Source: a virus
IMG/VR virus record: IMGVR_UViG_3300045988_113959
Location: 31,643-95,642 of that record
Length of the DNA: 64,000 bases
Strand: one strand, 5' to 3'
The notes under the pieces are model-generated. The model made no database searches, was not told the origin of the DNA, and saw only the letters and a program-made list of their open reading frames with translations. A program made the position numbers and the translations under genes. Shown piece by piece: positions 8,426 through 54,364 of this stretch (within the stretch, counting starts at the first letter, position 1; every line of letters starts with the position of its first letter).

Positions 8426-8436
8426 TTATTTAAAAT

Positions 8437-13500: not shown

Positions 13501-16500
13501 AGTATGTTTCGCAAAATCATGCAAGTGGTAGGCTTGGAAAAGCTGCATTTGATGAAGATATAGCAAGTGTGTTTGGAAATGCTTCTTTAAAAAATTCAGC
13601 TATAGAATACGCATTTAGACAAGCTCATAAAGAGCAATTTAATAACTTGTCTAAAAATTTCAACGATGCTATAAAAAATAAGTTTATAGTTAAAGCTTTA
13701 CGTTCTAAACTTAATGCCGAAGTAATATATTCTTCTTTAATTGATAGATTTAAAAACGATAAAGATTTTTCTGAAGAGATAAGAAGCATTGCTGAGGATT
13801 ATGCTTTTAACAACAACGTATCTAAAGCTGAATTTATTAAAGAAAGAATAGCCGTATTAAATTCTCGTAGACAACTTAATAATATAAGAAAGATATTATC
13901 ATTATCTGAATCAAGGTTGGAATTTCTTAATTTATATCAAATAGAGACTGGTCTTGATATAGATACAAGTAAGCTTGGAACTCTTATATCAGAACTTAAG
14001 AGAATGGAGAAAGGTCTTGTTGATGAACAAAATAGAGTTCTTGGGAATAAGAAAGGTAAAATAAACTATACATATGATGATTTGTTTGAAGACGACATTG
14101 AGGAGTATGAAATAGATAATGATAATTCTTATGACTAGGCTGTTACAAGATACTTTATAAATAAAGCTTCTTTGAAATCTCAAAAGATATTAGCTCAAAT
14201 GTATTCTCTTGCTGGTAATAAAGATATATCTATAAATCCAATATCTCTTAATGAAGCTATAAATGGTACAAATAGAACTGACGTGTTTAATGAAGAACTC
14301 ACCCAGTTTGAGAAGATGAATGCTAGGCTTAATTCTAGGAATGAATTAGAATCTGAACATGTTGATGTGTAGGTTACTCGTAAAGATATGAGCGAAGTTT
14401 CTAAAAAAGCTCAATTAAAACAGCTTCTTAAAGACCTTGAAGACCAAGAACATAGATATAGAATAGCTAATAGGTTATGGAAAAATGCACCAGTTACAGA
14501 AGTAGATTTAAATGATGCTACAGACGGTGATGAAGAAGCTTAGGATAAAGTTGATTCAGCAGTGGATAAAATCATCAATGCTGCAGATAGCGAAAAATCT
14601 AATACTACTGAAGGTGAAGTGCCTGCAAGTAGTGAGCTTATAACTCCTGATACGTTACACCAAGAAGACGAGCTTGCTGAAAGATATATGAATAGAAATA
14701 AAACTCGTGATGATAGAAAGCGTAAACAAAAAGAAAAAGCTCTGAATGGTAAAAAGGATACAGATGATGTTGAAGATAATAATTCTAAAGAAGAACTTAA
14801 AGAAAGCCCAAAAGACCCATTAAGCTCTCTTATTAATGGAATGATGGCTGATGATTCTGATGTTAACGAAGAGGGTGATGGTGGTGAAACCGTTCCAAGT
14901 AAAGATACACCAGCTAAAAAATAGCCAGAAAACAAACCAGCCAAATCTACAAGTACTCGAGATGAAGATGATATTGATAGTATTATAGATAATGGTGATA
15001 AAACAGATTCTGAACTTGATTCTAAAACTGAAAAACAGAAAGATGATTATTTAGAAGAAGAATTTCCAGATGATGCTGATTATGAAGAACCTGAAGAATA
15101 TATTGAAGATGATTCTGAAACTCAAGAAGCTGCTGTTGAATTAGAGTTAGAAGACGATGATGTTCAATAGACTGCGTCTGAAGTTGAAGCTGAGGTATTA
15201 AACGATGAAATTGATATTCAAGAAGCTGCGGCAGAAGCCGAGGCTGAATCTTTTGAATATATAGAAGATGCTAGTGATATTGATACAGAAGATTATAGTA
15301 CAACCGGAAGGGTAAAATACAAAGATAAAGTTCTATCTAAGAAGCAGTCTAAACAATTAATGGACGAGCTTATAATATTAGGTAGGGCTGAGATTGATGG
15401 ATTTGACCAAAAAGAACTTCCAGATGGAACTGTGCAAGATGTTGAGATGTATAGAATGAATGTTACAGATGATACTATAGGTAGTTTTATAAGCAATACA
15501 TTCTTCTATCAACCAAATCCAGACTTATTTGAAGAAACTGGAGAATATGAATTAATGAAGCTTACTGTTAATGGTGAGCAAGTTAAGCTAAATAAACCTT
15601 TAGCATCTGGCAAGCAATTGTCTGAAAAGCTTTCTCAAGAAGGTTGGTTACAGTCTACAAAAAAATACTATATAGTAACTCAATCTCAACAGTCCGAGAA
15701 GAATACTATAGGCGACGTTAGAGACTCAATGACCGTATGTCTTATACTTGAAGATGACAATAATACATACGCTACTACTCTTAGAGCTCTTGGATTAATG
15801 GTTAGTGATATACCTGGAGACCCAAATGGTAAATATACAGTATCTCAATAGAAGAATTTAATTGACAGATTAATAACAAAAGGTGTTGATTTTTCTAAGA
15901 TATTAAAGCCAGGGCAAAGATTACCAAATAGTTATAGCAGAAGGGCTAAGTTAGCCATAGATGCTATAAACGCAATGGAAATGAAGCTTGCTAAATCTTG
16001 GTGGATTAGTCAGGGTAGAAAAGAAAGTGATTTTGAAAACTGGTGGTTACATAAACCATTAAAGAAAGATTATCACAAATCTGAATATGAGAATGAATAC
16101 AAGCAAGATTTAACAACTTGGAGGAATGTACATACTCAATTTAAAATACTTGCAAGAAAACATTATCAAAAACCTGGTAAGAAAATGCTTACCGAAGAAG
16201 CTATAAAAGACCAAATAAATGGTCTTAGAGAGCTTAGAAATAGTATAATTGATAAGTATTTAGAAAAAAGAATTATCAAACAAAATGGTAAAGAAGTTGT
16301 TGAATATATATTCCCAGAACATGTTAGAGATGATGTAACTCCATCTTATGTTCAACAAAGTAATGGTGTTATAGATAATGTTAAAGAGAAGAGAGTTGTT
16401 GGTAATAATGGTTCAGCTACAATAGATTAGATACAAACTCAAATAAACGACGGAAGTATTCTTCTTGGATATGGTAAAGGTGCATTAGCAGAGACTTCTG

Positions 16501-19500
16501 AACAATTTGCAATATATGGTTTATTATCAAAAGATTCTGGAAAGATTTATGATGGTAAAGGGTTGTCTGGTAAGCTATATTGGCTTGTTAAAGGATTATC
16601 TGGAACAGATGCACTTGTACCAATAATGCTACATGAGGAAAGATTCGATACTCAGGATTTTATAGATAAGGAAGGACATAGAAAAACTAAGTTCATAGGT
16701 TCTAAAGATGATGTTAAACTCACTCTATCATATGACGCTATACAAGGAAAACTCATAAATACAAGTAATGGTAAAATTATTCCATCTACTGCTGAGATTT
16801 TGATGTATATGCTATGCGGAAGATTTAATTTTGGAACTAATAATAGGACTGAAATTGATAATATTGTAGAGTTCTTTATACATAGCGGTGAGAAAACACT
16901 ATTGAGAAATCAACCAAAAACTGGCGGAGACCCTATGAACTTCTTAGCAAGAAAGCAATTATTCTTTGGAGATGTTGATAATAGTGGTATAAATAAGTTA
17001 CATATAGGTATAGGCGACCCTCTCAACGGTTATCAAGAAAAGATATATACCGAAGATGAAATATTTGAAGATTCAGAACAAGGAGAAGCTAATAGAAGAG
17101 AAATAGTTCATGCTATAGCGACTCAAATGCACTGGAATACTGATATAGATTTTATAAACTCATCTATAAAAGTTGGAGATTCTACATCATTAATTGGTAG
17201 ATTTATACAAAATATGATTAGTGAGTATTTCTCCGGTAAAGGTTTAACTCCAGAACAGCAGCTTGAAAAAACTATAGATATTCTTGATAATAAACAACTA
17301 TCATTTAAGGTTAGTGATTTCTTTGAACTTAAGAATGGTAAATTTGCACCAAAGTCAAACGTTAGTGTGTTAGCTTGGCTTCTTTCTAATAAAAAAGTAA
17401 GTACAGATGTATCTAAAAAGATATTTAAAGACCCATTCGTATTTGCTGGTGGTGTTAATTCAGAAGCTCCAGCTCCGTCTAATGGAAAACCGCAATCAAC
17501 TTCAAAAGTTGAACTTGTTGGTAGTAATAATGATGTTGTTAGTACTGGTTTTAGTGTAATAAATCCCGATTTATTCAATAAGGCTAATGAAGCTGCTGGT
17601 AGTAAAGTAGAAGATGGTAGTAAAGTGGTAGAGCTTCGTAAAAACATGGGATTCAAATCTCCTAAAACACAAGAAGAAAGAGAAGCTTACAGAAAACAAC
17701 TTGAAGAGGCTCATATAAGTGCTAATAAGAATGGAGGTTTGCAAGATGCTATATATGTAACAGACCCATATTTAAATACAGACTTTAATAAGTTTAATGT
17801 AGGTAATATGGATAAGCTTATAGACCATCTAAACTCTCTTGTAAAAGACTTCTTGGATAAGTATAATAAAGAATACGGAACTTCATATAAAATTGAAGAC
17901 ATTGGCGGTATAACAAAAAACACAGCTCTTACAACTATAAATAATATTAGAAATAACAACGGTTACCTTAGATTGGATTTGTTTAAAAACGGTAAGGGTA
18001 AACTTCAGTTTACAACAAGTACAATGAAAACTTGGAGCCAACCAGTAACTGGTGTATATTCTAAACATAAATCAAATGGTAAGTTTGATAAAGATAAGGC
18101 TGTTAAGTGGCTTGAAAAACATCTAGGTATAAACAGATATAATATTATAGTTAGAAACGGCGTAATGAGAAGTACCGATAACGAATAGGTATTTGGTGTT
18201 ACGCAGGTGTCTTTAGATAGAATAGCTGGCGAGCTTACAGGTCTTATACAACTTTCAACAAATGGTGGTGAAGGTGTTACATATCACGAGGCTTGGCACT
18301 ATGTAAACTTGTTGCTTAATGATGCTAACACACGTTCTAAAATATGGGATTCATACGTTAAGACTCATAAAGAACTTAATAGAGATGGCGTAACAAATCT
18401 TATGATAGAAGAAGCTCTTGCCGATGAGTTTATGAACTATATAGTTATGCAGCAAGATAATTCTCTACCAGGAATGGTTAAGAAGTTGTTTAATAACATA
18501 CTTGACTTTGTTGTAACATCTCGTAGAAAGTCTGCGTATAGAGCTTTATTTAGATCTATAAAAAGAGGTGAGTTTGGTAATACCGAACACCTTGATAAAC
18601 AATCAGCTAAAGAGTTTGCTGAAAAGTATAAATATGGTGTAAACAAAATAGATTATTCAGTTCCTGGATTTTCTAATAAGGATTTAAATAATCTTAAGTA
18701 TATAGATAATCATACAGATTTATTTGCTGTATTAGACGCCGTTGTTAGAAAAGTTATATCTGACTTTAATATAGACTCTATAGATAAGATTAAATAGATT
18801 TCTGGTGCGTACGATAAGAATCAACAGCTTGATTTTAGTATGCTTCTTGACAAGGTTCAAGATATGGCTGACGAAGCTGATTCAGAACAAATGTCATCAA
18901 TGCTTCAAGATATACATGATAACCCAGAATTTTTAAAGCGTAAGCTTGTAGAAACTTTTGCTGATTTTGGAATAAATGTTAAGATTAGAAGAGAAGAGGA
19001 TGTTGATGAAGCTGAAGATGCAGAAGAAAGAAATGATTTTGAGTTTGATAAGTTTGATTTATCTATAAGTAAAAAAGACAATGCGGCTTTAAGAGTTAAG
19101 ATGTTTATGTATTCAATACCTAAATACACAAGAGTTTTTAATGAAGATGGTTCAGTAGATATACAGATGGTACAAGATGGCTTTGGCTCGTCTTTATTCT
19201 GGGATTTCAACGAAGCTTGGACAAAGATTCTTAAAGATTTATGGCAAGCCTCATCTCTTGACGATGTATATACTGAAGACGTTGTTAAAGATGGAGTTGT
19301 TAAATATAATAAGGGTGAATATAAATACAATTCTATATACGGAATGGTTTCTCGTAGAGCAGAATCGGATGTGTTTTATTACGCACTCAAAGAAAAACTT
19401 AACCAATTACTTGCTAATAAAAATCCAGATGTTTAGCTTAGAAGCCAATTGTTTGCTACCATAAATTCAAGCAAACCAAATGTATCTTATATAAAAATAT

Positions 19501-22500
19501 CAGACCCAAAAGATTGGAATAATAACGATGACGAATTTATTGATGATACAGATATAGATTCAAGTTTATATCAATTCTCATTAATATCTGATAAACTTAG
19601 AGAGTGGAGAATAAATGATGATTCACTTGTATCAACTGAAAGAAATATTGCAAGACAGTGGTCTAAGAATCTATTTACAAACGGTTTGACAAAGATTGAT
19701 GGTAATAATGGTATAGTTGTTAGCGATTCTTTTGTTAGTAGCAGGCAAAGAGAACTTGATAAAGTTATAAGAAAACTATCTAAACTTCTTGTTAAAAAGA
19801 ATAAAAGATATATATCAGGCGAATCAACGGTACTATCTAAACTTAATAATACTGGTGAAGAATCTGCAATAAAGAATGATATTGTTAAATTCTTAAACTC
19901 TATAGGCATAGATGCTGATAGACAGTCTATAGATATTTATATATCTATGAACTCCGATAATGAGAATGTATCTGGATACGAACAAGCCAAAATACTTCAT
20001 AGACTTCTTAGTAGCACAGATAAAGCTAAAGGAGGTATAAGTGGTATTATAAATGAAACATTATCATCTTCTGTGGGTGAAAATATAATTCAAGCTGATA
20101 GTGTTAATGGTTTTGAAAAACAGTTAGATCAAGTATATAACAACTATAACAAAGATTCATTTATAGCACAACTTGCTGTATCTTGGGACGCTGTACATCC
20201 AGACCCATCAGACTTCTCTGTAAAAGGACCAAGTGGAGAAATGTATTATCCTATAGGATAGAATAACTATATATCAAGTAGGGTTAGAAATCTAAACGAT
20301 GCACAGTCTGAAACTTCTAAAAATCTTAGAAGAGACCCTTATTCAAGACACTCTTTATTGCTTGATGCTGCTGACAATGTTAACGAAGATGATTCTAAAA
20401 CACAGCTTAGGATAAATGCATTTGTCGGTCTTAAAGATGGTGATAGATTAAAAGGTAGTGATTATTTTGGAATAACAGCTATGGAAGATTATCTTTCAAA
20501 GATGTACATGACAGAGAACGACCATCTTATATTACCAACTATGGCTGATAAGAAAACTTGGTACTCTATAACATCACCAAATCTAAAATTAAGACATGAT
20601 GTTGTAATATCAGAAATACCAAATAAACTTATTAGAAGTGCTGCTGTTGATGTTTATACTGAGAATTTTAAAACTATAAAGAAATTTAAGAGTGATAATA
20701 GTATTGTCGAAGTACCAATTAATGAGTTAGATGATTACGAATTAAAGTCTTATGTAATGGATTGGTATAGAAGTCTCCCATCTAATAGTTATAATAGAGA
20801 AGATATTGAAAGCAGAGCTATTAACCAAATGTATAATGGTTCTAATTTTAATGGCTTTAGTGTAGATATAAATGGAAATATTATTCCTAAATATTCTAAT
20901 GATACATTAAATATACTTGCTGGTTATTTTATAGATGAACTAGATGCTCTTATACAGTACTATTCTGAAGATAATATAAAATATCTTACTGAAAATCCAA
21001 ATAAACTTCAAGAAAATTTCCATGGTGTTATAAAGGATGGTAGAATGGACTTTTCTGGTAATGGTGGTAAATTTAGGTATTTTTACGATATAGTGCCAGA
21101 ATATATAAATGGGTACAATGTAGAACATAATCTAAACCTAAACCAAATTCTACAGGCAATATTTGAAGCTCAGAAAAAGCTTGAAACACCTGGATTTAAG
21201 GTTACAGAAGATGACAATTCAGTTATGAATGGTTATAATGTATCACAATTAAGAGCTTTGCGTTCAGATAAGTCTGAATTAGATGGATTTGAACTTGTTA
21301 GAGATTATTTAAAAAAGTTGAGAGAATATGCTGTAGAAGAGGAGAATCTTGGCATTAATAAATATTCAAAGGATATTTTAAATAGTGTAAACAACTTTAT
21401 ATATAGAGGTGTTACTAATGAGCTTGAGCTGTTATCTGAGAACGGACCATTGCAAATGGTAAAGAAAGATAAAAATGGCAGATTTGTACCTACAAATATA
21501 CCGCAACAATTCTTTAATCCTTATGTTGAAGCTTTATCTAAGACTAAATTATTCTCAGGCAACGATTTATACGATAACTATTATATTCAAAATAGTGCAC
21601 TCGTATCTCTTATAAGTAATCATTTTGTAAATAGTATAATTTCAACTGTAGAATTTGAAAAAGTATTCTCTGGAGACCCTGCTCAATATAAGAATAAAGG
21701 TAACAAGAAAGCTCCTTTTGTTAGTACAACATTATCTATTTCTAATGAAAATAATAACATTAGCATCGATGTTGACGTTGACAACCTAGATGATATGCAC
21801 TCTGATAAAATCAAACGTCTTGGAAGTACATTATCTCCAGGAGAAGAGATTAGAACTCAGTATAATAAAGATGAAATAGAAAAGCTAAACATACCAAGTC
21901 ATTCTAAATACACAACACTTGATGTTGAAGATATTAAAACACCATCATTATTCTACGACGAAGTAAAACAAAAATTCTTAACTTAGCTTGTTGTAGATTA
22001 TGTTAGAACTGGTGTTATAAAAGAACAATTTGATAACTTTATATCACATATAGCTGGCATTCTTTATAAGAAAGCTAAAGATAGGTCTAATGGCGAAAAC
22101 ATAAAGCCAAAAAGAGTTTCTAAATCACAGGCTATAGATTTATTATATTCTGACAAAACTTACTTTGATATTTTATATAATAGTATTCCTAAAGATATAA
22201 AAGAAAGGATAGAATCTCAACTTGACCAATAGATGGACCCATATAAGAAAATAAATGTATGTGATGCTCAGGTTATAATAAGACCAGATTTGTATAGAAG
22301 AGTTAGAATTGGTCTCGGACAGTGGTCTGTAGTTCCAGATGAAACTGGATATTCTGATGAAGATGCGTTTAATATAATCGAAAACGGATATTATATAAAC
22401 GAAGATGGTGAACGTGTAAACATTGGAGAGCAAGATTGGGCTAAAGATAAAAATCTCGCATCAAAGATTCAAAAGTTACAGCTATTCCCATTAAAGATGT

Positions 22501-25500
22501 CTTATTTTGATAATTATTCTCACAAGGAGGGTGATAATTTTAGAAATAGAACATTACTTAATAAGATGGCTATATTTCCATTGTTTAAATTTAACATGTC
22601 TACAAACACGGGTTCTAAACTATATCTAAGAATGAATAGATATGGTGATTGGATAGATATGATTACTTTTAAATCAGCTGTTAAGGTTGGTGCTGTTCAA
22701 AAAGGATTACAGTTAATATCTAATGATTCTAATGTTGAAGATGGCGTTTCTAAACTATCTTCTTTAGTTGATAGAGATAGTGATACTGCTATAGATTATA
22801 AGACCGGAATTGTTATTAATAAAGGTTCTGAAAATTCACTTTCTGTAAAAGTTCAAAGTTTAGATAATCTTAGAATGCAGTTAAATACAAAAGCTCACGA
22901 AACAGACGAACGTATGATTGGTAAGCAGATGTTTAAGCTGGCATTCTCAAACTTAGTTGATGATGAGAAGTATGGTCATGGTGATAAAAGAAGAACTGGA
23001 AAGTCTATTAGAAAGGATATTATGACCACAATTAATCTACTTACATAGTTTGGTGTAATATCTGTAAAAGATGAGTTTTTTAACGAAGATGGAGATGTTG
23101 ATAATTCTTCTGTATCAAGTTTTGTTTAGAGAGTTTGTAGTAGCAATGGTTTAGGCGCATCTGCTTTACAAATACTTAGTAAAGGTGGAACTATATCAAG
23201 CTTAATGTCAAGAAGAGTATTTGAGAATAGTGTATCTAAGTTTATAAATAAACTTGTTGTAGATATAAACTCAAAAGGTGGTACTGCTATTCAGCAATCT
23301 GTACTTGGATTCTCTGCATTTAAGAAAGGTGATAATTTACTTGGACTTGAACAAGCTAAAGGTAGAATACCAAAATCAATACAATTGAATAATGGAAACG
23401 AATTAAAGTGGAAGACTAATAAAAACTACACCCAAGTGATATTAAGCGAAAACTTCTTTAGGGATATAGTTCCAGCTAATATTCAACAAATGGGATATGA
23501 AGCTATAAGAGCTTGGTTGTTTGAAAAGAATATAATTGGAGAAAATGCAAATCCACTTGGTGTTGGCTATCGTATTCCTACACAGGGTCAATCGTCAATG
23601 TTTGCGCCACAAGTTGTTGATATTCTTCCAAAACAGTCTGGAGATGTTATAATAGTACCAAGAGAGTTTACTGGTCAGACTGGTTCCGACTTCGACGTTG
23701 ATAAGATATTCTTAGCTCTTAAATACTTTAACAAATCAGGTTCTGAACACGATATAGATTATGATTTAATAGAGTCTATTTATAATGGCGAATCTAGTAA
23801 TATGTAGGTCGCTGTTAAAATTATATCTAAAATGTCTGGAAGAAGTGAAGAGGATGTCGCTAAAGCTATAGAAAGTCAAGACGATGAGTCTATTAATTCT
23901 ATTGTTGATGATTTAGATATAGAAAAAGCTGTAAAAAATCACCTTATAAATACTTATATAGACATTCTTACAGATGATAAAAACTTCTCACTTGCAAGAG
24001 GTTCTATTGACGTTGTAACAAATATATTGCAAGACTAGCTTGTTAAGAAGTATCTAAAAAATACATCTAATGGCTATTCTGTTGGAGGTTATCAACTTAG
24101 TCCGTATTTCCAAACTATGAGAAAACTTGAGTTTAGTTCTGGTAAGCAAGGTATTGGACCATTTGCTCTTAATGTTACAAACTTATCTCTTACACAGTAC
24201 ACTAGATTAACATTTGACTATGGTGAAAATCCATATGAGTTTGGAAGTCTTGATGCTATATATGGAGAAGATGGAATGCGTATTGCTGACTGGCTATCTG
24301 CAATGGTTAATGCTAATGTGGACGTTGCTAAAGACCCATATGTGTTTGCTTTAAATGTAAACCAAGCTACATATAGTCATACTAACTTCTTAATTAGAGC
24401 TGGAAAGGGTCTTGGTGTATTTACATTCCTAACACAACCATCTATAAAAGAGTTTGCTAATATAAAAAACAACTCTGGTAATGTATATGGTTTTAACTTA
24501 GAAGGTGATAAGAGTGAAGGTGATTATACTGGCAAGTATGAAAAGAGTATATATAATCAAATATACTACGGTATTATAAAACAACTTAAAGAGTGTTTAT
24601 TAGCTGTTGACGATAAGGATTCTCAAAAGTAGATTAGGAGTTTTATAAACTATGTAGATTCTTTAATTATAGACAAAAATCACAAAGATATCACACCAGA
24701 GGAAAGAAAGTCTATAAAAAGACCATTTTCTAAGAAGTAGATGTTTGATGTTGAACTTGGAAAGAAATCGTTAGAATTTAGTAATAGTAAACCAGGAGTT
24801 AACAAAGCTTCATCGCTTGCGTTCCAAGCTTGTGCACTAAACTCATTTAAAGATGTTGGTGTTTATGCTAAAAAATTATCAGATTTAGTTAAAGTATCTC
24901 AGATTGATACTAAGAAGTTTGGTAATTCTATAGCTCAGCAAATAAACTTTTCAAATCGTATAGATGTATTTAAAACAACAGATGGATTTACAATAAACAG
25001 AAAAGATTTTAAATCTTGGGTTTAGCAGCTCGCTAAAGAAAGAGAGGCTAAGACTGGGTAGAAAGTATCTTTAGGGAGATTTGAATCTACCGTAGCTATA
25101 AATGAATATTTTAAGAACACATTCTTAGGTAGTAAATTTAAAGAGTCTAAAAAGCTAACAAGATTATTACTTAAGAATCAATCGTTTACAGCAACAAGAC
25201 TATTTGATAATATATTCAGAAACATAATGGGTTAGACATTAGGCTTTAAAGATGCAGATGAAAATACTGTTAGTTACAAACCTACTTCAAAAGATGAGGT
25301 TGTAAACACAATATCTGATTCTATTGATAATGTCTTAAGGTTCTTATCGTTATTTGGCGTTGGTTCAAGAATTATTAAATCTGCATCATTTAAAGAAAGA
25401 AATCCAGACGCTATAGACTTTACAATGGGTGGTGATATAAATCTTGTTAAAGATAAAATTAAAACTATATTGTTTGGTAATAAAGAAGTTGATAATATCT

Positions 25501-27557
25501 TTTTAAGATTTAACAAACTTAAGAGTGATATGCAAGCTAATCCTTAGAATTACCCAGGTCTTATAGACCCAGTTACACTTGGTGTTCAGAATGAGCTTTT
25601 GAATTATCTAAATCCAATATCAGCTAATGAAAAATCACCTGTTGGTAGATTTGTGTTATCTACAAATCAAATGAAAGTTAATCAAAGTAAGAAATAGATT
25701 TTATCAAGCGCATTTAGTCAACTGTTATCATATCAAGATGAAAATGTTAGACAACTTGCTGAAGATTTAGCTTTCTATGCATATTATTCTTCTTATGACC
25801 AGAATAGAGTTGACGCATTCTTTGATTTAGTTCCTGTTGAATACAGAGCTCAATATGATAAAGCTCTTATGTTTGCTCTACACGATATGAATCGTAGTGA
25901 AAATAAACTTGTAAATACAAACAATGATTTATTAAGTTTATATAACTATGATGTTAATAATATTGAAGCTGATAGAGCAGAAAATATAATCGATATTATA
26001 TCAAGAAACTATTGGTACGATGATAATATAGTTAAAACTCACTATATAAAAGAAGATGAAAGTGTTTTTTTATTAGGAGGAGGTTATGATGTTCTTGGAG
26101 AGCCAGTAATTGTTCAAAATGAAGATAATAAGGTTTATCCTAACTTTATAGTTACTAGCAATTCTGATAGCTCTTATATTAAAATTAAGAGTGGAAAGAA
26201 TTATATGTTGTATAAAAATATAGGTTCTGTTATTAAATATAGAGATGGTAATATCGTTGGTATTCAATATGTTTACGCTGCTACAAACAAGGCTGGAATA
26301 AAACAAGGTCAAGCAAATATTCTTGAGATGTATGGGTCTTTTGGTGTTGGTTCCATATTTGAAAATAATAAACTTGATGAAGAGTTCTCTCATGATAAAG
26401 TTGTATCTGATGTAGAAAAGCTTGTAAAAGATAGTAATGAGGCTAATAGCGGTTATGGTTTTGAATTATCATGGTATAAGCCTGTAATAAAACAATCTAC
26501 ATCATAGTATAAAGATAACTTTATTCAGACTCAAATTGCTAATCCCGAACGTGTTATAAAAGTTGGTCCAGTTAAGTTAAAGGCTGGTCAAAAAGCTCCA
26601 GATAGAGTTGGTATAAACAAAGCTGATGTAGTTATAAATATAGTAAATGATTCTGTTAAAGAATCAGATTATTATAATACAATAAAGAGTGAAGATGCTA
26701 AATAGAAAACCGTTACTGTTAATATGAGTGAAAACCCGTCTAAGTTTATAAATAAGATTTTAACCTTAATAAATAAGGATAATGCTATTATACACTTTAC
26801 AACTCCAATATTTGATTATATATTAGAAAGAGGAGTTAGTGATGATAGAATCAGTAAATATATTGAGAGTGAAATTGAAAGACTTGAGAATGTTTTTGAT
26901 ACACAAGATGTGAAAGAAAAAGAAGTGCTTCTTAAACAAAATAGAGAGATGCTTGAAAGCTTTAAAGCTCGTAGAGTTTTAGCTTTGCAAGACCTACATT
27001 CTTTTATTAGAGAAATATTAAACCAACTGTCTATCAATGACGTTAATATAAATAGAATATCAACATCTTCTACTAAAAAAGGAAACTCTAAAAGATATGC
27101 TTTAGCAAAATCTGTAGCCGTATTGTCTAATTATATGCAATATACGTTCTCTGGTAAGAATATAATATACTGTAATAATAATCTTACATCTGATAATAAA
27201 GCATTTAGAAATTATATAAAAGAACTTCAGTATGAGGTTGACGATAGTGAAAATTTATTAGAAGATGCAGCTATAAATGAGTATATTGATATAAATCAAA
27301 CATTAGCTAAAGATGTAATGAACTATGACGACAAATCATCTAATATAGTAGAAAGGACATTAAAAGAAAATACTGGCGAAGATTCTAAAACTTAGACAGA
27401 AAGTAAAACAGATGATGACGCTAGCAATAATATATCTAGTTTTGATTCGCTAAGTATACTTTCTAATGCTATAGACTATAGCTCTGATGATTTCTTGGAC
27501 GAAGTTTAGGAAGATTTAGAGAATGATTTAGAAGATAATAATCACGAAAAATGTTAA
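10521..27557 (+). CDS. giant virion protein (5,678 codons) with a two-barrel RNA polymerase DxDxD motif and a zincin HExxH motif; about 33 in-frame TAG
   Basis: All 21 tracked ORFs from 10521 to 27395 start at coordinates divisible by 3. I read every gap between them and found only TAG, never TAA or TGA. Ends at TAA-TAA 27555-27560. Motifs are GYRIPTQGQSSM...GSDFDVDK (23565-23702) and HEAWH (18285-18299). Confidence 0.85.
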
Positions 27558-37202: not shown

Positions 37203-37226
37203 GACTTATAAGTTCTAAATAACTGT

Positions 37227-37268
37227 AGGTATTACGAGAATCGAACTCGTATTTATTCCAAAATACCC
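37227..37268 (-). ncRNA. acceptor/T-arm minihelix (42 nt, no D or anticodon arm)
   Basis: Reads GGGTATT-TTGGAATAAAT-ACGAG-TTCGATT-CTCGT-AATACCT. The outer stem is extendable to 9 bp. Confidence 0.4.
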
Positions 37269-37284
37269 TACATAAGTTATAAAC

Positions 37285-37503
37285 TTATGCTTCTTTTGTA
37301 ATTCTGTTGAATGCTAATTTTATAAAGCTTTCAACTCGATTGTCATCATAAAAACAATCTACATTTTCTTTAAATTGAACATCTCTAGCAACTCCATAGT
37401 TTTCATCTATGTAGTTAAACACAGCTTGTCCAATTCTCCATGACTTAGGCTTTGAATTATTTACATAATCCATAACCTCTTTTTTAAACTCTTCGTAGCT
37501 CAT
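37285..37503 (-). CDS. hypothetical protein (72 aa)
   Basis: Tracked ORF on the coding strand of this arm. Confidence 0.5.
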   Translation of the reverse strand: MSYEEFKKEVMDYVNNSKPKSWRIGQAVFNYIDENYGVARDVQFKENVDCFYDDNRVESFIKLAFNRITKEA

Positions 37504-37613
37504 ATTTTATATATTAAATTTGCGCAGGTCATGGACTCGAACCAATCCAGTGTCCTCGACACGAGCTAGCTCACCCAGCTCCCAACTTCCAGTTGACATA
37601 CCTACTATAATAG

Positions 37614-37883
37614 TTAATCACTTAACTCTTTCTCCTCTATAGAGATTACTATATAATTATAACTTTTTCCAGAAAATGATACATTAGTACCATCAAAACT
37701 ATATTCATATTCCTCGAAGTCTTTAAAGTTATTTTTAATAAATTCACTTTCTTTATTCATAACTTTCTTAGCTGAATCTAATGTTTTACATGCAGCTAAA
37801 ACTTTAGCACCTTCATCTATATCAATAAGATATCGTTCTAAGACGACAAATACTTTAATACTATTATCTTTATCCATAAACAT
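37614..37883 (-). CDS. hypothetical protein (89 aa)
   Basis: Tracked ORF. A promoter-like box sits about 10 nt upstream of its ATG. Confidence 0.55.
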   Translation of the reverse strand: MFMDKDNSIKVFVVLERYLIDIDEGAKVLAACKTLDSAKKVMNKESEFIKNNFKDFEEYEYSFDGTNVSFSGKSYNYIVISIEEKELSD

Positions 37884-37890
37884 TTATTTT

Positions 37891-37916
37891 AAAGCTATTT
37901 AAATGCGTTCTAAGGG
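37891..37916 (-). promoter_or_regulatory. promoter-like 22-nt box (minus-strand CCTTAGAACGCATTTAAATAGC)
   Basis: One of at least 8 copies of the same box. Lies about 10 nt upstream of ATG 37883. Confidence 0.45.
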
Positions 37917-37965
37917 CTTAAAGCATTTCTCATATATAAACATTCAACCTGTCTACTTTAAGCCG

Positions 37966-37986
37966 CTTAGAATGCAAATAAATATG
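37966..37986 (+). promoter_or_regulatory. promoter-like box in the opposite orientation (plus-strand CTTAGAATGCAAATAAATATG)
   Basis: Inverted partner of the 37891-37916 copy, about 50 nt away. Confidence 0.35.
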
Positions 37987-38005
37987 TACAACAGAATGAA
38001 TTTAT

Positions 38006-38062
38006 GCGGGATAAAGAGACTCGAACTCTTTACATGTTAGATATGTATACCATATATCCCCG
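38006..38062 (-). tRNA. candidate amber-suppressor tRNA (anticodon CTA), D-armless, about 56 nt
   Basis: The minus strand reads GGGGATA-TATGGTA-TACAT-ATCTAAC-ATGTA-AAGAG-TTCGAGT-CTCTT-TATCCCG. It has a 5-bp anticodon stem and a 7-nt loop with U33, CUA (plus-strand TAG at 38038-38040) and A37. The T-arm is canonical and the acceptor has 6 bp. Only a 7-nt linker replaces the D-arm. A promoter-like box ends about 5 nt upstream. Confidence 0.5.
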
Positions 38063-38066
38063 TATA

Positions 38067-38089
38067 GGCTATTTATTTGCGTTCTAAGG
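38067..38089 (-). promoter_or_regulatory. promoter-like box (minus-strand CCTTAGAACGCAAATAAATAGCC)
   Basis: Ends about 5 nt upstream of the 5' end of the CTA tRNA-like gene. Confidence 0.5.
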
Positions 38090-38099
38090 AGTTTCCTTT

Positions 38100-38440
38100 C
38101 GAGACAACTACAATCAATAACATGTTACTATTATAACCCCTCAAATCGCTCCTAAATAGCCTTAAATCGAACACTCCCTCTCCGTATCAGAGCTATAATA
38201 CTTAACGTAGGAATAGCCTTATTACACGTCATTATTGTTCGATGCGAATTGTTAGCTAGACAATTCTACGTATTCATGTAAGTTTACTTAACCTTTCAAA
38301 CTTCGCAATTAGCTCGCCAGCATCCTAAACTAGTTTACGTCTTGTTCCTTAACGCTTACGCACACATTTATAGTCAGTACGCTACTATTGACTCTAAGGC
38401 GGTGTCAGCCCAGCCTAAATAGCAATTTTAGGTCTTACGA
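38100..38440 (-). ncRNA. candidate structured ncRNA (about 340 nt) downstream of a promoter-like box
   Basis: ORF-free and GC-richer than the flanks. Hairpins include gaattgt/acaattc (about 38246-38266) and tagtca/tgacta (38371-38394). A promoter-like box at 38442-38466 points into it. Ends are not defined. Confidence 0.3.
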
Positions 38441-38441
38441 A

Positions 38442-38466
38442 AAAGCTATTTATTTGCGTTCTAACG
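38442..38466 (-). promoter_or_regulatory. promoter-like box (minus-strand CGTTAGAACGCAAATAAATAGCTTT)
   Basis: Points into the 38100-38440 ORF-free segment. Confidence 0.45.
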
Positions 38467-38555
38467 CGTTCAAATTTAAAGTATGTATAAATACATTACT
38501 TATTTATTTAAACGTCTTAAATCGCTCTTAAACAACCTCAAATCAAACGATTTAG

Positions 38556-38623
38556 TGAGATAGAGGGGACTCGAACCTCTCCACACATCAAAACTATGCA
38601 AAACTATGTGTACCATATATCTC
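38556..38623 (-). ncRNA. tRNA-like paralogue of the CTA element with an expanded 17-nt anticodon-position loop
   Basis: Reads GAGATAT-ATGGTA-CACAT-[AGTTTTGCATAGTTTTG]-ATGTG-TGG-AGAGG-TTCGAGT-CCCCT-CTATCTC-A. It shares the ATGGTA linker and YACAT/ATGTR stem of the CTA element. The loop contains a tandem 10-nt duplication. Confidence 0.4.
38589..38608 (-). repeat. perfect tandem duplication of 10 nt (plus-strand caaaactatg x2)
   Basis: 38589-38598 equals 38599-38608. The repeat sits in the anticodon-position loop of the tRNA-like element. Confidence 0.9.
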
Positions 38624-38746
38624 AAGTAGAGGTTTTAAACAGACCTCTAAACTGTGATTAGCGTCGCTAGGAATACGGGCATCACCCACGTAAACCATAT
38701 TCTGCACTAATCTGCTCATTGGATGTCCACCATCGACCGTTTACCA

Positions 38747-44551: not shown

Positions 44552-44633
44552 TGGTAGGTGTGGGATTCGAACCTCACGACCGCTGCATTGTTAGTGCAGT
44601 ACTCTAGACCAAAAACTTCTGAGTTAACCTACC
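44552..44633 (-). ncRNA. tRNA-like gene, 82 nt, anticodon loop CTAACAA (AAC), extended D-arm
   Basis: Reads GGTAGGT-TA-ACTC-(16 nt)-GAGT-A-CTGCA-CTAACAA-TGCAG-CGGTC-GTGAG-GTTCGAAT-CCCAC-ACCTACC-A. The acceptor and anticodon stems are perfect. The T-stem has an A:C mismatch with an 8-nt loop, and the D-loop is oversized. Confidence 0.4.
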
Positions 44634-46981: not shown

Positions 46982-47563
46982 TTAGCCTTCCTTAATAGTT
47001 ACAGTAACATTTGGTTCACCAAACTCACGAACATAAGCTTCTACTTTCTTATTGTTCTCATCAATTGCTGCAAGGATTGCTTGCTTGTCCTTCTTAAGGT
47101 CTTCAATTAGATTGTCAATTCGTGTCAATTCTGAATTATTTGCTACATTTGCAGCTGAAACTAATGCTTTTACATCTGAGAAGATTATGCTATTATCTCC
47201 TCGAAGAGCCTTGCCAATAGCATCATCAGTAACCTTTCCAACAGATGACAAGTCTGGTGAAATTGGCATTACAACACTACTAGGAAGGTCTTTATTGATG
47301 ATTACTACTGGAGCTCCAGAAATATCTTCACCAATTTGTAGGCTTTGAACATCATAGCCTAGAACACGAAATCGTTGTATTGAACGGTTGAGAATTAAAT
47401 CCTTATTGCCATTCATTTCTATATCCCGTTTCAATTCCTCAAAGTTGAGGGTATTTTGACGAGCTTCTGGACGATAATACTGGCAGCCAAATTGTTTGCC
47501 AATAGTTGATAAATTACAACGATTACTTGCGATTACCTGAGGGTTTACTTTATTAGTATTCAT
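46982..47563 (-). CDS. hypothetical protein (193 aa)
   Basis: Tracked ORF, 4 nt upstream of the next gene. Confidence 0.5.
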   Translation of the reverse strand: MNTNKVNPQVIASNRCNLSTIGKQFGCQYYRPEARQNTLNFEELKRDIEMNGNKDLILNRSIQRFRVLGYDVQSLQIGEDISGAPVVIINKDLPSSVVMPISPDLSSVGKVTDDAIGKALRGDNSIIFSDVKALVSAANVANNSELTRIDNLIEDLKKDKQAILAAIDENNKKVEAYVREFGEPNVTVTIKEG

Positions 47564-47811
47564 TTTTTATTCCTTTTTGAAATTATTTTTGATAAATTAA
47601 CGAATAAAAAAACGTTAATCCGATATAGCTGTAATATACAGCTTCCTAATTTTTATTTTTTGAACATTTCTGTGTCGAAGCATCTGAATGCTCTGGTTAA
47701 ACATAATTATAATGATTATCTATTTTCTTTAGATACGCTTTCAACTTGGCTATTTACACTTTTATTCCTTTAAATGAAGCTCAATCGTGTAAAGGGAATC
47801 CAACGGTAGGA

Positions 47812-48051
47812 TTAACTATGCCCATCAACAAATTGCTTTACAAAGCTTTGAATGTCATTATGCGTATTCAAACGCTTGTTTTTTGAATTTATATTCAATT
47901 TATTTTTAATTAAAATAATACATGAAGTATACTGTTTAACATCCGTCAAAGGCTCTGATACAGAGAGTTCCAGTGCTGAGATATTAATGTAAGTTTCCAT
48001 GTTTTTATACCAACGAAAAATTGCGTAATTCTTTATATTTTCCACATACAA
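47812..48051 (-). CDS. possible small protein (79 aa)
   Basis: The only minus-strand ORF inside the long ORF-free stretch. AT-rich like real genes here, but isolated. Confidence 0.3.
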   Translation of the reverse strand: MYVENIKNYAIFRWYKNMETYINISALELSVSEPLTDVKQYTSCIILIKNKLNINSKNKRLNTHNDIQSFVKQFVDGHS

Positions 48052-49853
48052 AAAACTACTCTGCCGCTTTTCTGGTCTTTGACCTTCTATTGTTAAATTA
48101 GGAATGTCAATTCATTCCTTCTTTTTTCAATATTATCACTAATATTACGGTTGTGAAGATAATCAATCCGTTTTGCTCTCTTGCTCCTCCCAAGAGCTCC
48201 ATAGTCAAGAGGTACGTGCGTGTGTACCTATACGCTTGGACTTCACGTTTCATTATCGAACAATCTCATCCTTCAGAGGGAATCACGGATTCTACGGTTG
48301 TTTCTACTCTTGGATTTTACTTCCTCATTTTTCTATCTCTTTCTTTCGTTGAGACGTGCATATCACTTGGGATTTCAACCCCACCATCTACCCTTGTCAC
48401 CCACAACATTCCTTTTTAATACATCGAGACAGGACGTATTAATGAGTCACTAACTCCCTATCCTTATTGCAAGGACGTACTTAAGTTCTGTTGCTGCCCA
48501 TCAGTTCAACGATGATAGCTCTATAGACTTGCTTACAATTGCTTTGTAGTTTTAAATAAACATCCTCGGCCACCTATTTGTATATATATACTTTCGGCAA
48601 CTCAGGCTTAGATGTTTATATTGCTATCTATTCTGCTTAATTAGTTTAAGTGTATTGGCACTCGAGTTTCCGACTTAGTTTCTTTTTTACAATAAAAGGG
48701 GTATACCTATCGGGGGACACTCATTTGTTATACATGTTAATTCTTTTCTCAAACTCTTTTTTCTTAATAACTATACAGTTTGTAAAACTTATACGCACAT
48801 ATGTTTTGTAGTTTACTACTCTACAGTGAGCTTTACGATTTTGTATAAGTGGTTACAAAATTATTAATACTTATAGCTTTTGAAGGTCGGCGAGTTTCTT
48901 CATTACCATTGGCAATATGGCATTGGAATCGTTCCTACCTCGTTTGAACATTGCTAGAGTCCCGCTAGCTCGGTTTCGACTGTCAAGTTGTCAACTGTAA
49001 GGATATAGGTTTTTTATGCCTGCTACCACAATACATTACTTATATTCCACGTGCAAATGGCTAATGTATTTCAAATCAGACTTTGTCCGCGGTCTCGTTT
49101 CGCGTAGTATTTCTACTTAAGGATTTGCTCCACCTTCTAGTCATTTTACTTTTATATCCCGCATAAACGACCAAAGCCTGGCGGTCACATTCATCGTAAA
49201 TCAAACTGCTACCCATTCCCTGTTCCCTAACTCATCGAAAAGGCTACCGAATCGAACGGTAAGGATTTTGTTCAGTTGTCGTAGTTACGGTACGACTCGT
49301 GAGTATTACTCTCACGATATTAATTACTCATGTATTTTTTCACTCCTTCATACTCTACTTTGGTTGTAGAGGAACACTAAGCTGCACTTTGTAAATTGAT
49401 ACTCATAGAGGAATTTGGCCTTGCCTTCATATAACCATACCATGTATTATATTCTTCGGGGTTTCTCTACTATGCTTCAACTCGTGTAACGTTCTTATAT
49501 ACAGTGTATCAGCTGTATATATTTCCGATACGGCACCTAGTTTAACGTGATTGGCAACTCACGAATTATGCGTCTTCTTATATATCCATCACCAGACGGT
49601 TCTCACTTCAATATAAATAGGGTTAGATACAACGCTCACCCTAATACAAATAGGCTTTTCACACCTAAATGTCTTCCACCCCGTCTTTTGCGTTTCTCAC
49701 CCTTTGAGAGGGCTAACATATCATAGGGTCTAGTTAATTTCGCTCAGAGGCTAATGAGACCTCTTATATGAGCTTAAACACCCGTTACACACACTAAGCG
49801 CAAAGCTTACAATGTGTGTAACTCCGATTATATACGGTTAGTGCACGGTCCTT
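48052..49853. other. 1.8-kb ORF-free, GC-enriched, hairpin-dense region (candidate large structured RNA locus; strand unresolved)
   Basis: No credible ORF exists on either strand, even with TAG allowed across 47988-48417 in the plus-strand frame I checked. A spot count gave 27/60 G+C in one 60-nt line (49181) against 21/60 in a coding line (45001). There are many perfect stems, for example the 10-bp gttacacaca/tgtgtgtaac at 49784-49822. Confidence 0.5.
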
Positions 49854-50207
49854 TTATATTGACTCTACTTTTGTAGAATCATGGGAGGTTTTCCAACTCC
49901 CAGAAGGAATTTTTAAACTAAAGGCAGGTAGATACGAAGTACCTTCTTTAGACTTAACACGAACCTTCGTTACGTATTTAAGTTTTGTTTTAACCACTTT
50001 AACCGTGTCTGTCTTTTTAACAAACACAGTATCCTTATCAGTTCTCTCTACACCTTTCGGTATATTTGAAATAGCTGGTAACATATTGTTACTAGCATTA
50101 ACCGACATAGTACTAACTAACGTCGGTGCAGGTTTATCATTTATTGCTACGCATACGCCAGCTATCGCGAATGCAATACTACAAATGATTGTAGTCGTTT
50201 TATTCAT
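49854..50207 (-). CDS. secreted or membrane-anchored protein (117 aa)
   Basis: N-terminal hydrophobic segment TTTIICSIAFAIAGVCVAI. Confidence 0.5.
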   Translation of the reverse strand: MNKTTTIICSIAFAIAGVCVAINDKPAPTLVSTMSVNASNNMLPAISNIPKGVERTDKDTVFVKKTDTVKVVKTKLKYVTKVRVKSKEGTSYLPAFSLKIPSGSWKTSHDSTKVESI

Positions 50208-52197: not shown

Positions 52198-52770
52198 TTA
52201 AGAATTTTTAATTAATTTCTTTTTAATTTTCTCTCTAGTTCTCGATAAGATTGATTTAATCGTTCCTGTCGGAATGTTGAGAGATTCACTAATCTGAACA
52301 ACAGTCATATTATTTACATAAAAAAGTTCAAGAATCTGCTTCATATGAGCAGGAAATTTCTTAAATTCTTCGATGACTCTTTCGTACTCAAGTCGATTGA
52401 CTAAATCAACTTCGTCGGAAGATATAGAAGACGCAAGCGATAGTCGTTCACTCATATCTCCTACAGGTTTCGCTTTGTTTTTTATACTTCGTAAATAATC
52501 AATTGCCGTTCTTTGAGTTAAAATTCTTAACCAACCCCCGAAAGAGTCGAAATCTAAGAATTGCGAGAGGTTATTATAAACTTTAAGGAAAACTATATTA
52601 GTTATATCCTTCGCTTCATCTAAGTCTTTAATATAATAGTATAAAATACCATCAACAAAAGACTTATAGCGATGAAAAAGTTTATTAAAGGCTAGTATAT
52701 TACCAGCCTTAGCGCTCTTGATAAGTTCCACCTCCTCGGGGGTAATACGTGGACTATTTATCATCATCAT
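52198..52770 (-). CDS. ECF-type sigma-70 family RNA polymerase sigma factor
   Basis: Region 2-like F..LF.RY...V.....Y.....AKDITN.VFLKV and GGWLRILTQRTAIDYLR. Region 4 HTH is MTVVQISESLNIPTGTIKSILSRTREKI. Confidence 0.7.
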   Translation of the reverse strand: MMMINSPRITPEEVELIKSAKAGNILAFNKLFHRYKSFVDGILYYYIKDLDEAKDITNIVFLKVYNNLSQFLDFDSFGGWLRILTQRTAIDYLRSIKNKAKPVGDMSERLSLASSISSDEVDLVNRLEYERVIEEFKKFPAHMKQILELFYVNNMTVVQISESLNIPTGTIKSILSRTREKIKKKLIKNS

Positions 52771-53608: not shown

Positions 53609-54048
53609 TTTAAATTATTTACAAAAAAATTAGCTAACTCTAACGCTGTGTCTTTGTTAGTTGTTTTAACAAATATGGAATATAGTTCAGAAATAGTTTC
53701 TTCGCTACTCTTCCCCATCGAGAGATTAATCTTTCGTATATTATCTACATACGGAAGATAGTACTTAAACCAATCAACCCAACCAATAGTTGGCTTTAAG
53801 ATTAATTCATCATCCTTTGAGAGTAAATCCCAATCCAAACTCTTTTTATAATCAAACAGTTTATTTTTGTTAGAGATACCCAATATAATTCTAGTAGCAT
53901 TATATCTGTCTTCTTTATTAACATAGATATTTATCTGTTTATCATAAACTAAGTTCAACCATCTCTCTTTGGCTTTACACCATTTGAGAGCTAAATCTAC
54001 GTAGACAGGTATTCTGTCTCGTAGCATATTTTTGTAACCAGTATTCAT
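53596..54048 (-). CDS. hypothetical protein (150 aa)
   Basis: Tracked ORF, overlaps the downstream gene by 13 nt. Confidence 0.5.
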   Translation of the reverse strand: MNTGYKNMLRDRIPVYVDLALKWCKAKERWLNLVYDKQINIYVNKEDRYNATRIILGISNKNKLFDYKKSLDWDLLSKDDELILKPTIGWVDWFKYYLPYVDNIRKINLSMGKSSEETISELYSIFVKTTNKDTALELANFFVNNLKWIM

Positions 54049-54050
54049 AG

Positions 54051-54092
54051 TGAGTATGAGAGGAATCGAACCTCTTTGAGCCTACCATACTC
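54051..54092 (-). ncRNA. acceptor/T-arm minihelix at the 3' end of the tmRNA-like coding piece
   Basis: Reads GAGTATG-GTAGGCTCAA-AGAGG-TTCGATT-CCTCT-CATACTC-A, a self-contained 7-bp acceptor plus T-arm. Confidence 0.4.
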
Positions 54093-54253
54093 ATTCTAAA
54101 CCACTTTGGTAGGTTATCGCATCCACCTGACTTTTACTTACGCTACGCAAGTATAGTCTACAACATTAAAGTTGCCATTTAAATATACACAATATCCTTC
54201 CTAACTAAATAGGTGTATTTACTTCTGATATTAGTCAAACGCCAATCAGCCCC
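54093..54253 (-). ncRNA. ssrA: tmRNA-like gene, coding piece (5' acceptor strand, P2 strand, tag reading frame)
   Basis: Starts GGGGCTGATTGGCGTTTGAC-TAATATC, 18 nt downstream of the acceptor piece. GGGGCTG pairs with CAGCTCC, including G3:U70. TAATATC pairs with GATATTA (helix P2). The candidate tag GGC AAC ... GCG TAA spans 54176-54138 and reads GNFNVVDYTCVA. The 3' boundary is uncertain. Confidence 0.6.
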
Positions 54254-54271
54254 GTTGTTTATCTATTATTG

Positions 54272-54364
54272 TGGAGCTGACGGGAATCGAACCCGTGTCC
54301 TAATATCTTACCTAATACGGGATAAAGTTTCTTTATTAGGGGATGAGTGGAGTAGCGACCTCCA
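54272..54364 (-). ncRNA. ssrA: tmRNA-like gene, acceptor piece (T-arm plus 3' acceptor strand) of a circularly permuted ssrA
   Basis: The minus-strand 3' end is GATATTA-GGAC-ACGGG-TTCGATT-CCCGT-CAGCTCC-A, close to the universal tmRNA 3' end (E. coli GGACGCGGGTTCAACTCCCGCCAGCTCCACCA). A promoter-like box lies just upstream. The 5' boundary is uncertain. Confidence 0.6.

Follow-up and report, generated by a model that had tools for sequence, protein, structure and literature searches.

A conserved and covarying 2-kb region of crAss-like phages of the Suoliviridae as a likely structured non-coding RNA gene

What does a phage keep in more than 2 kb of DNA that carries no credible gene? The question is raised by positions 47564-49853 of a 64,000-nucleotide (nt) stretch of viral DNA (the window; IMG/VR record IMGVR_UViG_3300045988_113959, positions 31,643 to 95,642), which derives from a TAG-recoded crAss-like phage of the Suoliviridae, subfamily Oafivirinae. 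An earlier note on this DNA, made from the letters alone, had proposed a large structured RNA of the kind seen near phage transfer RNAs (tRNAs), and had listed a cluster of small RNAs, a replication origin and a decayed gene as alternatives. The results presented here agree with the first proposal: the region is non-coding by two tests, is conserved among relatives, and contains covarying base pairs, including pseudoknots. We consider it likely that positions ~47753-49822 constitute a minus-strand gene for a structured non-coding RNA whose action depends on its fold. The extent of this gene (~2.05 kb) was drawn from a collinear nhmmer profile, from conservation, and from the lack of 3-base periodicity. 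The RNA is multi-domain, with at least five conserved domains of many short helices, and the region is under strong purifying selection.

More than 100 phage contigs carry the conserved core (~2.05 kb, ~47753-49822) in the same syntenic place. The best GenBank match of the region is a Bohxovirus (Crassvirales, Suoliviridae/Darmviridae, Oafivirinae), with 75% identity across 82% of the region, and two IMG/VR contigs show 93-98% identity. The same genes enclose a gap of ~2.0-2.2 kb free of coding sequences (CDSs) in Bohxovirus, Chuhaivirus, Cacepaovirus, Buhlduvirus and Burzaovirus, and an nhmmer profile of the region gave collinear matches over ~1.9-2.0 kb in dozens of IMG/VR contigs. The 115 full-length copies collected were reduced to 37 non-redundant sequences (~92% identity or below), with a median pairwise identity of 55% and a minimum of 48%. 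The RNA blocks are all co-inherited, and stay collinear, in each of the more than 100 copies, and the linkers between domains are highly conserved as well. A strict three-block pattern (GGCAGC...GTGGGTGAYAA...GTTCGATAA) matched 47 IMG/VR viral contigs and 81 metagenome contigs, the latter mostly phage genomes of 95-104 kb, but none of the 185,579 bacterial and archaeal species-representative genomes in GTDB; at this stringency, the element was recovered only from phage-type contigs. By their sample identifiers, some copies presumably come from rumen and gut metagenomes.

The region has little to offer as protein-coding sequence. Its longest standard-code open reading frames (ORFs) encode 88 amino acids (aa; 48153..48419, plus strand), 79 aa (47812..48051, minus strand) and 77 aa (48220..48453, plus strand); the isolated 79-aa ORF described in the earlier note is therefore present, though it is not the only one. 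No credible ORF appeared under any single stop-codon reassignment: with TAG, TGA or TAA made sense, all six frames yielded no ORF longer than 193 codons and nothing coherent, extending to the whole region the observation that TAG readthrough opens no long frame. When substitutions relative to three relatives were counted by position modulo 3, chi-square values did not exceed 4.1 in any 300-nt interval of 47600-49850, compared with 30-80 over the flanking genes. Public records do place 'hypothetical protein' CDSs inside the homologous region (GenBank/RefSeq records L001 7117-7623, L144 3867-4349, L145 3461-5469 and L146 10895-11056). PV686213, for instance, has a plus-strand ORF of 168 aa, cr7_1 has another, and Dulem virus 42 has twelve or so very small ones. 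The strand and position of these calls vary from record to record, and they are almost certainly spurious.

At the nucleotide level, the region is conserved to a degree that equals or exceeds that of the flanking genes. Identity to the Bohxovirus relative is 75% inside the region and 66-79% in the neighboring genes, and substitution density against that relative is lower in the region than in those genes. In more distant genera (cr130_1, cr131_1, cr272_1), several blocks of the region could still be aligned by blastn, which was not the case for any of the genes directly beside it. The region is also richer in guanine plus cytosine (GC), as had been noted before, with a GC content of 0.363 (0.372 in the core) compared to 0.317 in the rest of the window, which places it at the 97th percentile of equal-sized segments.

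Covariation among syntenic relatives, which the earlier note had named as a way to check for a structured RNA, was assessed by cutting the RNA at conserved anchors into five pieces (S1-S5) and aligning and folding 18 representatives with pairwise identities down to ~50% (determined on the 14 chosen first); five sub-alignments were used since a full-length alignment exceeded 3000 columns. Compensatory double changes were found at 18 of 23 predicted pairs in S1 (49600-49800, alignment A3), 24 of 30 in S2 (49170-49600, A4), 24 of 31 in S3 (48880-49180, A5), 28 of 43 in S4 (48230-48740, A6) and all 8 in S5 (47740-47880, A7), for a sum of 102 of 135. Across A3-A6, 92-95% of cells were paired compared to 72-79% with the 3' partners shuffled (93.9% versus 78.6% in A3, 92.1% versus 71.6% in A4, 93.3% versus 72.1% in A5, and 94.9% versus 76.0% in A6), and covariation scores were 0.48-0.66 compared to 0.19-0.28 in the shuffles. 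None of 500 shuffles matched the observed pairing or covariation score in these four alignments, and sliding the partners by 1-3 columns lowered pairing to 25-59%. It is important to note that the pairs were counted on the same alignments that predicted the structure and that the shuffle control ignores phylogeny; because of the latter, most weight is given to the slid-partner controls and to independent compensatory events.

The pattern of pairing also points to a strand. Many pairs have G·U as their most common state, or as a frequent one, in alternation with G-C or A-U, for example pairs 389-536 of A6 (GU in 18/18), 13-61 of A5 (GU:13, GC:4), 128-160 of A3 (UG in 16/18) and 380-426 of A4 (UG:14, CG:3, UA:1). 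When helices were predicted independently on both strands, G·U exceeded A·C by 148 to 78, where base composition predicts equality, and a de novo search of 37 sequences recovered 13 local covarying helices on the minus strand compared to 5 on the plus strand. Because these G·U pairs would be A·C mismatches on the plus strand, the RNA appears to be encoded on the minus strand, as are all of the neighboring genes.

A search beyond the Oafivirinae used a sigma factor of the extracytoplasmic function (ECF) type (52198-52770, minus strand; Pfam Sigma70_r2, Sigma70_r4, Sigma70_ECF) as an anchor to locate the homologous gap in other Suoliviridae subfamilies. This protein is ~27-31% identical to its counterparts in other Suoliviridae records and anchors a synteny that includes the RNA: ECF-type sigma factor, small gene, ~470-aa gene, small gene, RNA, and two ~190-aa genes, an order that the Oafivirinae share with the Loutivirinae, Boorivirinae and Uncouvirinae, all of the 'delta' crAss-like group (Suoliviridae). 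In the Uncouvirinae (cr125_1), Boorivirinae (cr1_1) and Loutivirinae (cr4_1), the place of the RNA is taken by an unannotated gap of 1.85-2.5 kb, and whichever code is used, the gene-sense strand of these three gaps has no long ORF. R1, a covariance model of the 5' domain, matched the beginning of the gap in cr4_1 (79.7 bits, E ~1e-14) and cr1_1 (39.6 bits, E ~2.5e-6), in both cases on the gene-sense strand; these E-values are rough. Further collinear nhmmer matches occur in the gaps of other subfamilies. The R1 model alone was not significant in cr125_1, whose gap has short collinear blastn blocks in common with cr4_1 and cr1_1. Presence across the family is thus based on one genome for each of these three subfamilies.

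Judging from the limits of conservation, the RNA would begin near 49822-49800 and end near 47753. At its 5' edge, ~30 nt past the stop codon of the upstream gene and with no U-tract after it, the alignment shows a long hairpin (gttacacaca/tgtgtgtaac, 49784..49822, minus strand, as are all RNA coordinates below) with the apical element GCUUUGCGC. This hairpin had been pointed out earlier, and both of its arms change in the closer relatives L067, L020, L009, L004, L026, L005 and L023, among which the apex is kept (AGCUNUGCGCU / GCUNUGCGC); it is not included in the formal pair count. The 5' domain that follows (49600..49802, A3) is the most widely conserved part, with R1 matches in the Loutivirinae and Boorivirinae, and contains helices 49764-49759/49751-49746 (loop CUCAUUA), 49732-49726/49681-49675, which encloses 49712-49709/49703-49700, and 49641-49639/49622-49620. 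Domain 2 (49170..49600, A4) contains helix 49382-49379/49345-49342 with 49369-49365/49357-49353 nested in it, helices 49317-49311/49303-49297 and 49296-49291/49283-49278, and a T-arm-like hairpin (ACCG-UUCGAUU-CGGU, 49261-49258/49248-49245) with the loop UUCGAUU. The stems singled out in the earlier note in this domain (gtcgta/tacgac at 49278-49296, cgtgag/ctcacg at 49297-49317, and the T-arm-like element at 49245-49261) all proved to covary among relatives. A further helix from an early fold, 49597-49590/49183-49176, was dropped: in the cr130/cr131 group, a C of the CCGCCAGGC block is replaced by A (CCGACAGGC, by eye) without a counterpart in the partner arm.

Domain 3 (48880..49180, A5) contains helix 49171-49165/49146-49140 beside the near-invariant block CCGCCAGGCUUUGGUCGUUUAUGCGG, together with hairpins 49134-49132/49124-49122, 49061-49058/49049-49046, 48993-48990/48980-48977 and 48922-48917/48909-48904. 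It also contains an H-type pseudoknot (49078..49104), in which stem 1 pairs CGCG (49104-49101) with CGCG (49091-49088) and stem 2 pairs AGAC (49095-49092) with GUCU (49081-49078); all 136 of 136 cells are paired, compensation occurs in both stems, and the slid controls are 16-39% paired. The next unit is a closed domain of ~325 nt (48395..48719, A6) that contains inner hairpins. Its closing helix joins UGUCCCC (48719-48713) with GGG(U)GACA (48402-48395) and is 100% paired, with only C-G to U-G changes, while the helix stacked on this closure, GCAACA (48494-48489) with UGUUGU (48408-48403), is strongly covarying, with 4 compensatory pairs. A candidate second pseudoknot helix (48355..48662) would pair AGUGC (48662-48658), inside the closed domain, with GCAC(U/G) (48359-48355), outside it. 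It is 95.6% paired, has 3 compensated pairs (in L005 and L072), and was recovered independently in the 18- and 37-sequence alignments; support for it is moderate because both arms are nearly invariant.

Toward the 3' end, a helix (48296-48288/48265-48257, within 48247..48296) runs into the 16-mer GUUCGAUAAUGAAACG (48262-48247), which is invariant save for one position among the 18 representatives. This helix is 100% paired, with pair types such as AU:8 GC:6 CG:3 UA:1 and GC:9 AU:7. A length-variable segment (47880..48230) follows, with conservation of 0.08-0.5 and no codon periodicity; it is expansion-region-like and holds the 79-aa ORF (47812..48051) and plus-strand ORFs. The 3' domain (47753..47880, A7), where all 8 predicted pairs are compensatory, contains the conserved CAUUCAAAGCUUU and hairpins 47874-47872/47865-47863 and 47813-47809/47801-47797 (AAUCC-UACCGUU-GGAUU). 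Motifs containing UUCGA recur in separate domains, at 49245-49261 and 48247-48262 (GUUCGAUUC, GUUCGAUAA), and a possible third site of this type lies at ~48938-48946 (UCGAUUCGA in relatives, ACGAUUCCA in the window). They could be T-loop tertiary modules, such as other large RNAs use for tRNA elbows or long-range contacts.

Do these domains belong to one molecule? The best-surviving alternative is a tandem cluster of independent small structured RNAs (small regulatory RNAs or tRNA-like modules), perhaps cut from one precursor. In its favor, most of the supported helices are local stems of 4-7 bp with 7-nt loops, the longest well-supported span is ~325 nt, and one hairpin is a perfect T-arm mimic. 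A long-range search found no helix tying the 5' end to the 3' end, and apart from the closure of the ~325-nt domain and one pseudoknot, long-range covarying helices did not exceed the noise on the opposite strand (4-bp long-range 'helices' numbered 15 on the wrong strand and 3 on the right one). Only the domain closure and the 48662/48359 helix are reported as long-range helices because the others were as frequent on the wrong strand. One transcript of ~2 kb is nonetheless probable, because the domains are collinear and co-inherited in all copies, the linkers between them are conserved, and no internal promoter or terminator pattern stands out. In addition, neither ARAGORN nor Rfam gave a credible tRNA in the region. 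A cluster of separate small RNAs is accordingly judged distinctly unlikely.

Several further observations, together with the lack of long-range pairing, weigh against a large structured RNA gene acting through its fold. The region had been described as packed with hairpins, and while every stem named there exists, their density is not above chance: the single-sequence minimum free energy has a z-score relative to dinucleotide shuffles of -0.27 (48880-49800) and -1.98 (47750-48740). The above-chance signal is conservation and covariation, not the hairpin density of a single sequence. A scan of the region revealed no recognizable promoter or terminator; promoter-like sites were at chance (13 versus 10.8 expected), and the terminator-like hairpins (7 versus 1.6 expected) are the RNA's own stems. 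The ends of small metagenome contigs do not coincide with the RNA borders. Comparison of the flanking proteins with Pfam, PHROGs, NCBIfam and PDB sequences gave nothing informative other than the ECF-type sigma factor two genes further upstream, and they offer no functional hint for the RNA. Finally, the translation-related role discussed below is speculative, being suggested by neighborhood and analogy only.

A second alternative is that the region is a very long cis-acting leader or 3' untranslated region that controls or stabilizes the messenger RNA (mRNA) of 46982..47563 or 49854..50207. It lies on the same strand as both neighbors, begins ~30-50 nt past the stop codon of the upstream gene, and lacks an evident promoter. 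However, 2 kb is about four times the length of either neighbor, the RNA is better conserved across subfamilies than the neighboring genes, and between it and the downstream gene lies a poorly conserved spacer that carries a conserved signal. This spacer (~190 nt, 47564..47752; low conservation at 47700-47750) lies outside the conserved RNA. The signal is a ~26-nt block (~47571-47596), directly upstream of the start codon of 46982..47563 and reading roughly UUAUCAAAAAUAAUUUCAAAAAGGAA, that is nearly invariant across five genera (columns T8-A33, alignment A1), unlike the surrounding spacer; this makes it a candidate promoter or translation-initiation signal for that gene. It is therefore very unlikely that the region is such a leader or trailer.

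A DNA-level element (a replication origin, a packaging site or an array of protein-binding sites, with hairpins in single-stranded DNA) is less probable again. The region is large, CDS-free and compositionally distinct, and G·T pairs can form in single-stranded DNA as well. Nested multi-helix domains, pseudoknots and a strand-asymmetric excess of G·U over 2 kb are nonetheless typical of RNA, and the idea of a replication origin found no support in two tests: GC skew is negative throughout the region, with the only sign change near 33 kb, and a repeat search found no repeat families and no iterons. Least credible of all is a coding gene masked by another genetic code, by introns or by frameshifts, or else a pseudogene in decay. 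Although the phage recodes TAG in its late genes and public records annotate small proteins here, no frame opens with any stop codon as sense, codon periodicity is absent, the annotated ORFs vary in strand and position among relatives, no intron family matches, and decay is ruled out by strong purifying selection and covariation.

The structured RNA gene favored here is previously undescribed. No account of it was found in the literature, including the main comparative paper (PMC7886860) and a Crassvirales review (PMC10136315), nor in two large surveys (PMC8040213, PMC10690425) that deal with the structured RNAs of microbiomes and phages, and it has no relative in Rfam 15. Rfam 15 scans covered the whole window at the gathering threshold, the region on both strands at E <=10, and six divergent homologues at E <=1; no family matched the region or its homologues, with only microRNA-level noise at permissive E-values. 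The three hits in the whole window (a tRNA, a tRNA-like gene and a permuted transfer-messenger RNA (tmRNA)) all lie outside the region. As far as covariance models can see, membership is excluded for GOLLD, ROOL, OLE, HEARO, group I and II introns, RNase P, ribosomal RNAs (rRNAs), tRNA, tmRNA and known self-cleaving ribozymes, a scan that the earlier note had suggested for GOLLD, ROOL and the introns. ARAGORN, run with lowered thresholds, introns and tmRNA mode, gave no credible tRNA in the region and one implausible call with a 668-nt intron.

Comparison with known RNAs is nevertheless instructive. Like GOLLD (RF01998), the candidate is a very large, multi-domain, covariation-supported phage non-coding RNA near tRNA-type genes; GOLLD sits in prophages beside tRNAs, and the present region lies in a crAss-like phage with a tRNA-like gene and a tmRNA nearby. 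It differs in having no match to the GOLLD model even at E <=10, in being ~2.5 times longer than GOLLD (~800 nt), and in its hosts, as it occurs in lytic crAss-like phages of Bacteroidota while GOLLD is known from Lactobacillales and lake bacteria. ROOL (RF03087) is a large ornate RNA, often phage-associated, that occurs near tRNAs in gut and rumen microbiomes; the candidate has no match to its model, is ~3.5 times longer, and has an unrelated architecture as far as covariance-model scoring tells. The covarying hairpin 49261-49245 has the canonical T-arm form of tRNA and tmRNA, with a short stem and a 7-nt UUCGAUU loop, and further GUUCGAU motifs are invariant in the alignment; however, the candidate shows neither an acceptor stem nor an anticodon arm with U33, and a full cloverleaf is absent. 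It resembles rRNAs and group II introns in size class (~2 kb), many short helices, expansion-like variable segments and pseudoknots, but has no Rfam match to small-subunit (SSU), large-subunit (LSU) or 5S rRNA, Intron_gpI, Intron_gpII or group-II-D1D4. Unlike an intron, it interrupts no gene, both neighbors being whole ORFs that each start and stop on their own codons, has no intron-encoded protein and no domain-V-like hairpin that was noticed, and is bordered on one side by the ~190-nt unconserved spacer.

The surroundings of the RNA divide into two gene blocks that converge near 33 kb, where the sole change in GC-skew sign occurs. Plus-strand genes of positions 1-33,000 (the late block) use TAG as a sense codon, which joins fragments into ORFs of 1560, 729, 696 and 5683 codons (1575-6257, 6236-8425, 8434-10524 and 10506-27557, plus strand) with 66 in-frame TAGs in total. 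The minus-strand block of 33,000-64,000, which includes the RNA region, uses the standard code, and the minus strand is the sense strand of every gene in it; the RNA would therefore be made with this non-late block. Upstream of the RNA lies a 117-aa gene (49854..50207, minus strand) with weak codon periodicity (chi-square 5-9), preceded by a gene with strong periodicity, while the 193-aa gene downstream (46982..47563, minus strand) has a chi-square of 40-66. A permuted (two-piece) tmRNA is encoded 4.2 kb upstream of the region (54047-54361, minus strand, also delimited as 54138-54331; Rfam tmRNA_permuted, 68.2 bits with a gathering score of 47) and was also called by ARAGORN, which gives it the tag peptide GNFNVVDYTCVA. 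A tmRNA is likewise annotated in the corresponding early module of the relative cr125_1 (L146 6022-6471), and a ribosomal-protein-like gene belongs to that module as well.

How might such an RNA work? It probably acts in trans through its three-dimensional fold, as an RNA particle or scaffold and not in the role of mRNA, leader or DNA site. By analogy with GOLLD and ROOL, it may fold into a compact, possibly multimeric particle; GOLLD is reported to form homo-oligomeric complexes (PMC12286853). Such a particle might bind or sequester translation components such as tRNA, the ribosome, or release or rescue factors, and a scaffold or decoy of this kind would aid host take-over in a phage whose late genes recode TAG and which encodes a tmRNA and tRNAs within the same module. 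This suggestion, prompted by the GOLLD and ROOL analogy and by the neighborhood (T-loop modules, tmRNA, tRNAs, TAG-recoded late genes and the ribosomal-protein-like gene of the cr125_1 module), is speculative and, as it stands, doubtful. To our knowledge, no larger structured phage RNA has been described. The most far-reaching version, in which one RNA of ~2 kb would be the largest structured phage non-coding RNA, second only to rRNAs in the bacterial world, a hallmark of the entire Suoliviridae, and an ornate, possibly multimeric particle acting on host translation during take-over by phages that recode stop codons, is unlikely.

In the human gut, most phage reads derive from crAss-like phages, and no group of the gut crAss-virome is larger than Delta (Suoliviridae; Yutin et al. 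2021, PMC7886860). As of a 2023 review (PMC10136315), none of the Suoliviridae had been cultured. A pseudoknotted 2-kb RNA at a fixed position in at least four subfamilies would point to an important RNA-based function missed by protein-centered annotation; public records either annotate nothing here or show small ORFs that are spurious. It would add to the few very large ornate RNAs (GOLLD, ROOL, OLE), and its deep alignment offers a target for three-dimensional modeling or cryo-electron microscopy. The genetic context (sigma factor, tmRNA, tRNAs and TAG recoding) yields testable hypotheses, and practical returns include a nucleotide marker and covariance model for the Suoliviridae and a correction to genome annotation.

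Two minor observations concern tRNA-type genes and other ORF-poor DNA in the window. A second stretch with small ORFs only (<=89 aa) and raised GC content (0.374) lies at 37203-38746; unlike the 2-kb RNA, it has no cross-genus conservation, aligning to the Bohxovirus relative only, where a tRNA-Cys is annotated; no tRNA of any kind was detected in the window copy. The tRNA-like gene, 3.1 kb downstream of the RNA region, spans 82 nt (44552-44633, minus strand; Rfam 53 bits) and was missed by ARAGORN even at a lowered threshold; by eye, it has a D-loop of 16 nt and the anticodon loop CUAACAA. Because this loop contains CUA and no canonical CUA suppressor tRNA was found within the window of this TAG-recoded phage, it might be a non-canonical suppressor. 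The homologous place in the Bohxovirus relative carries two 'tRNA-Ser' annotations.

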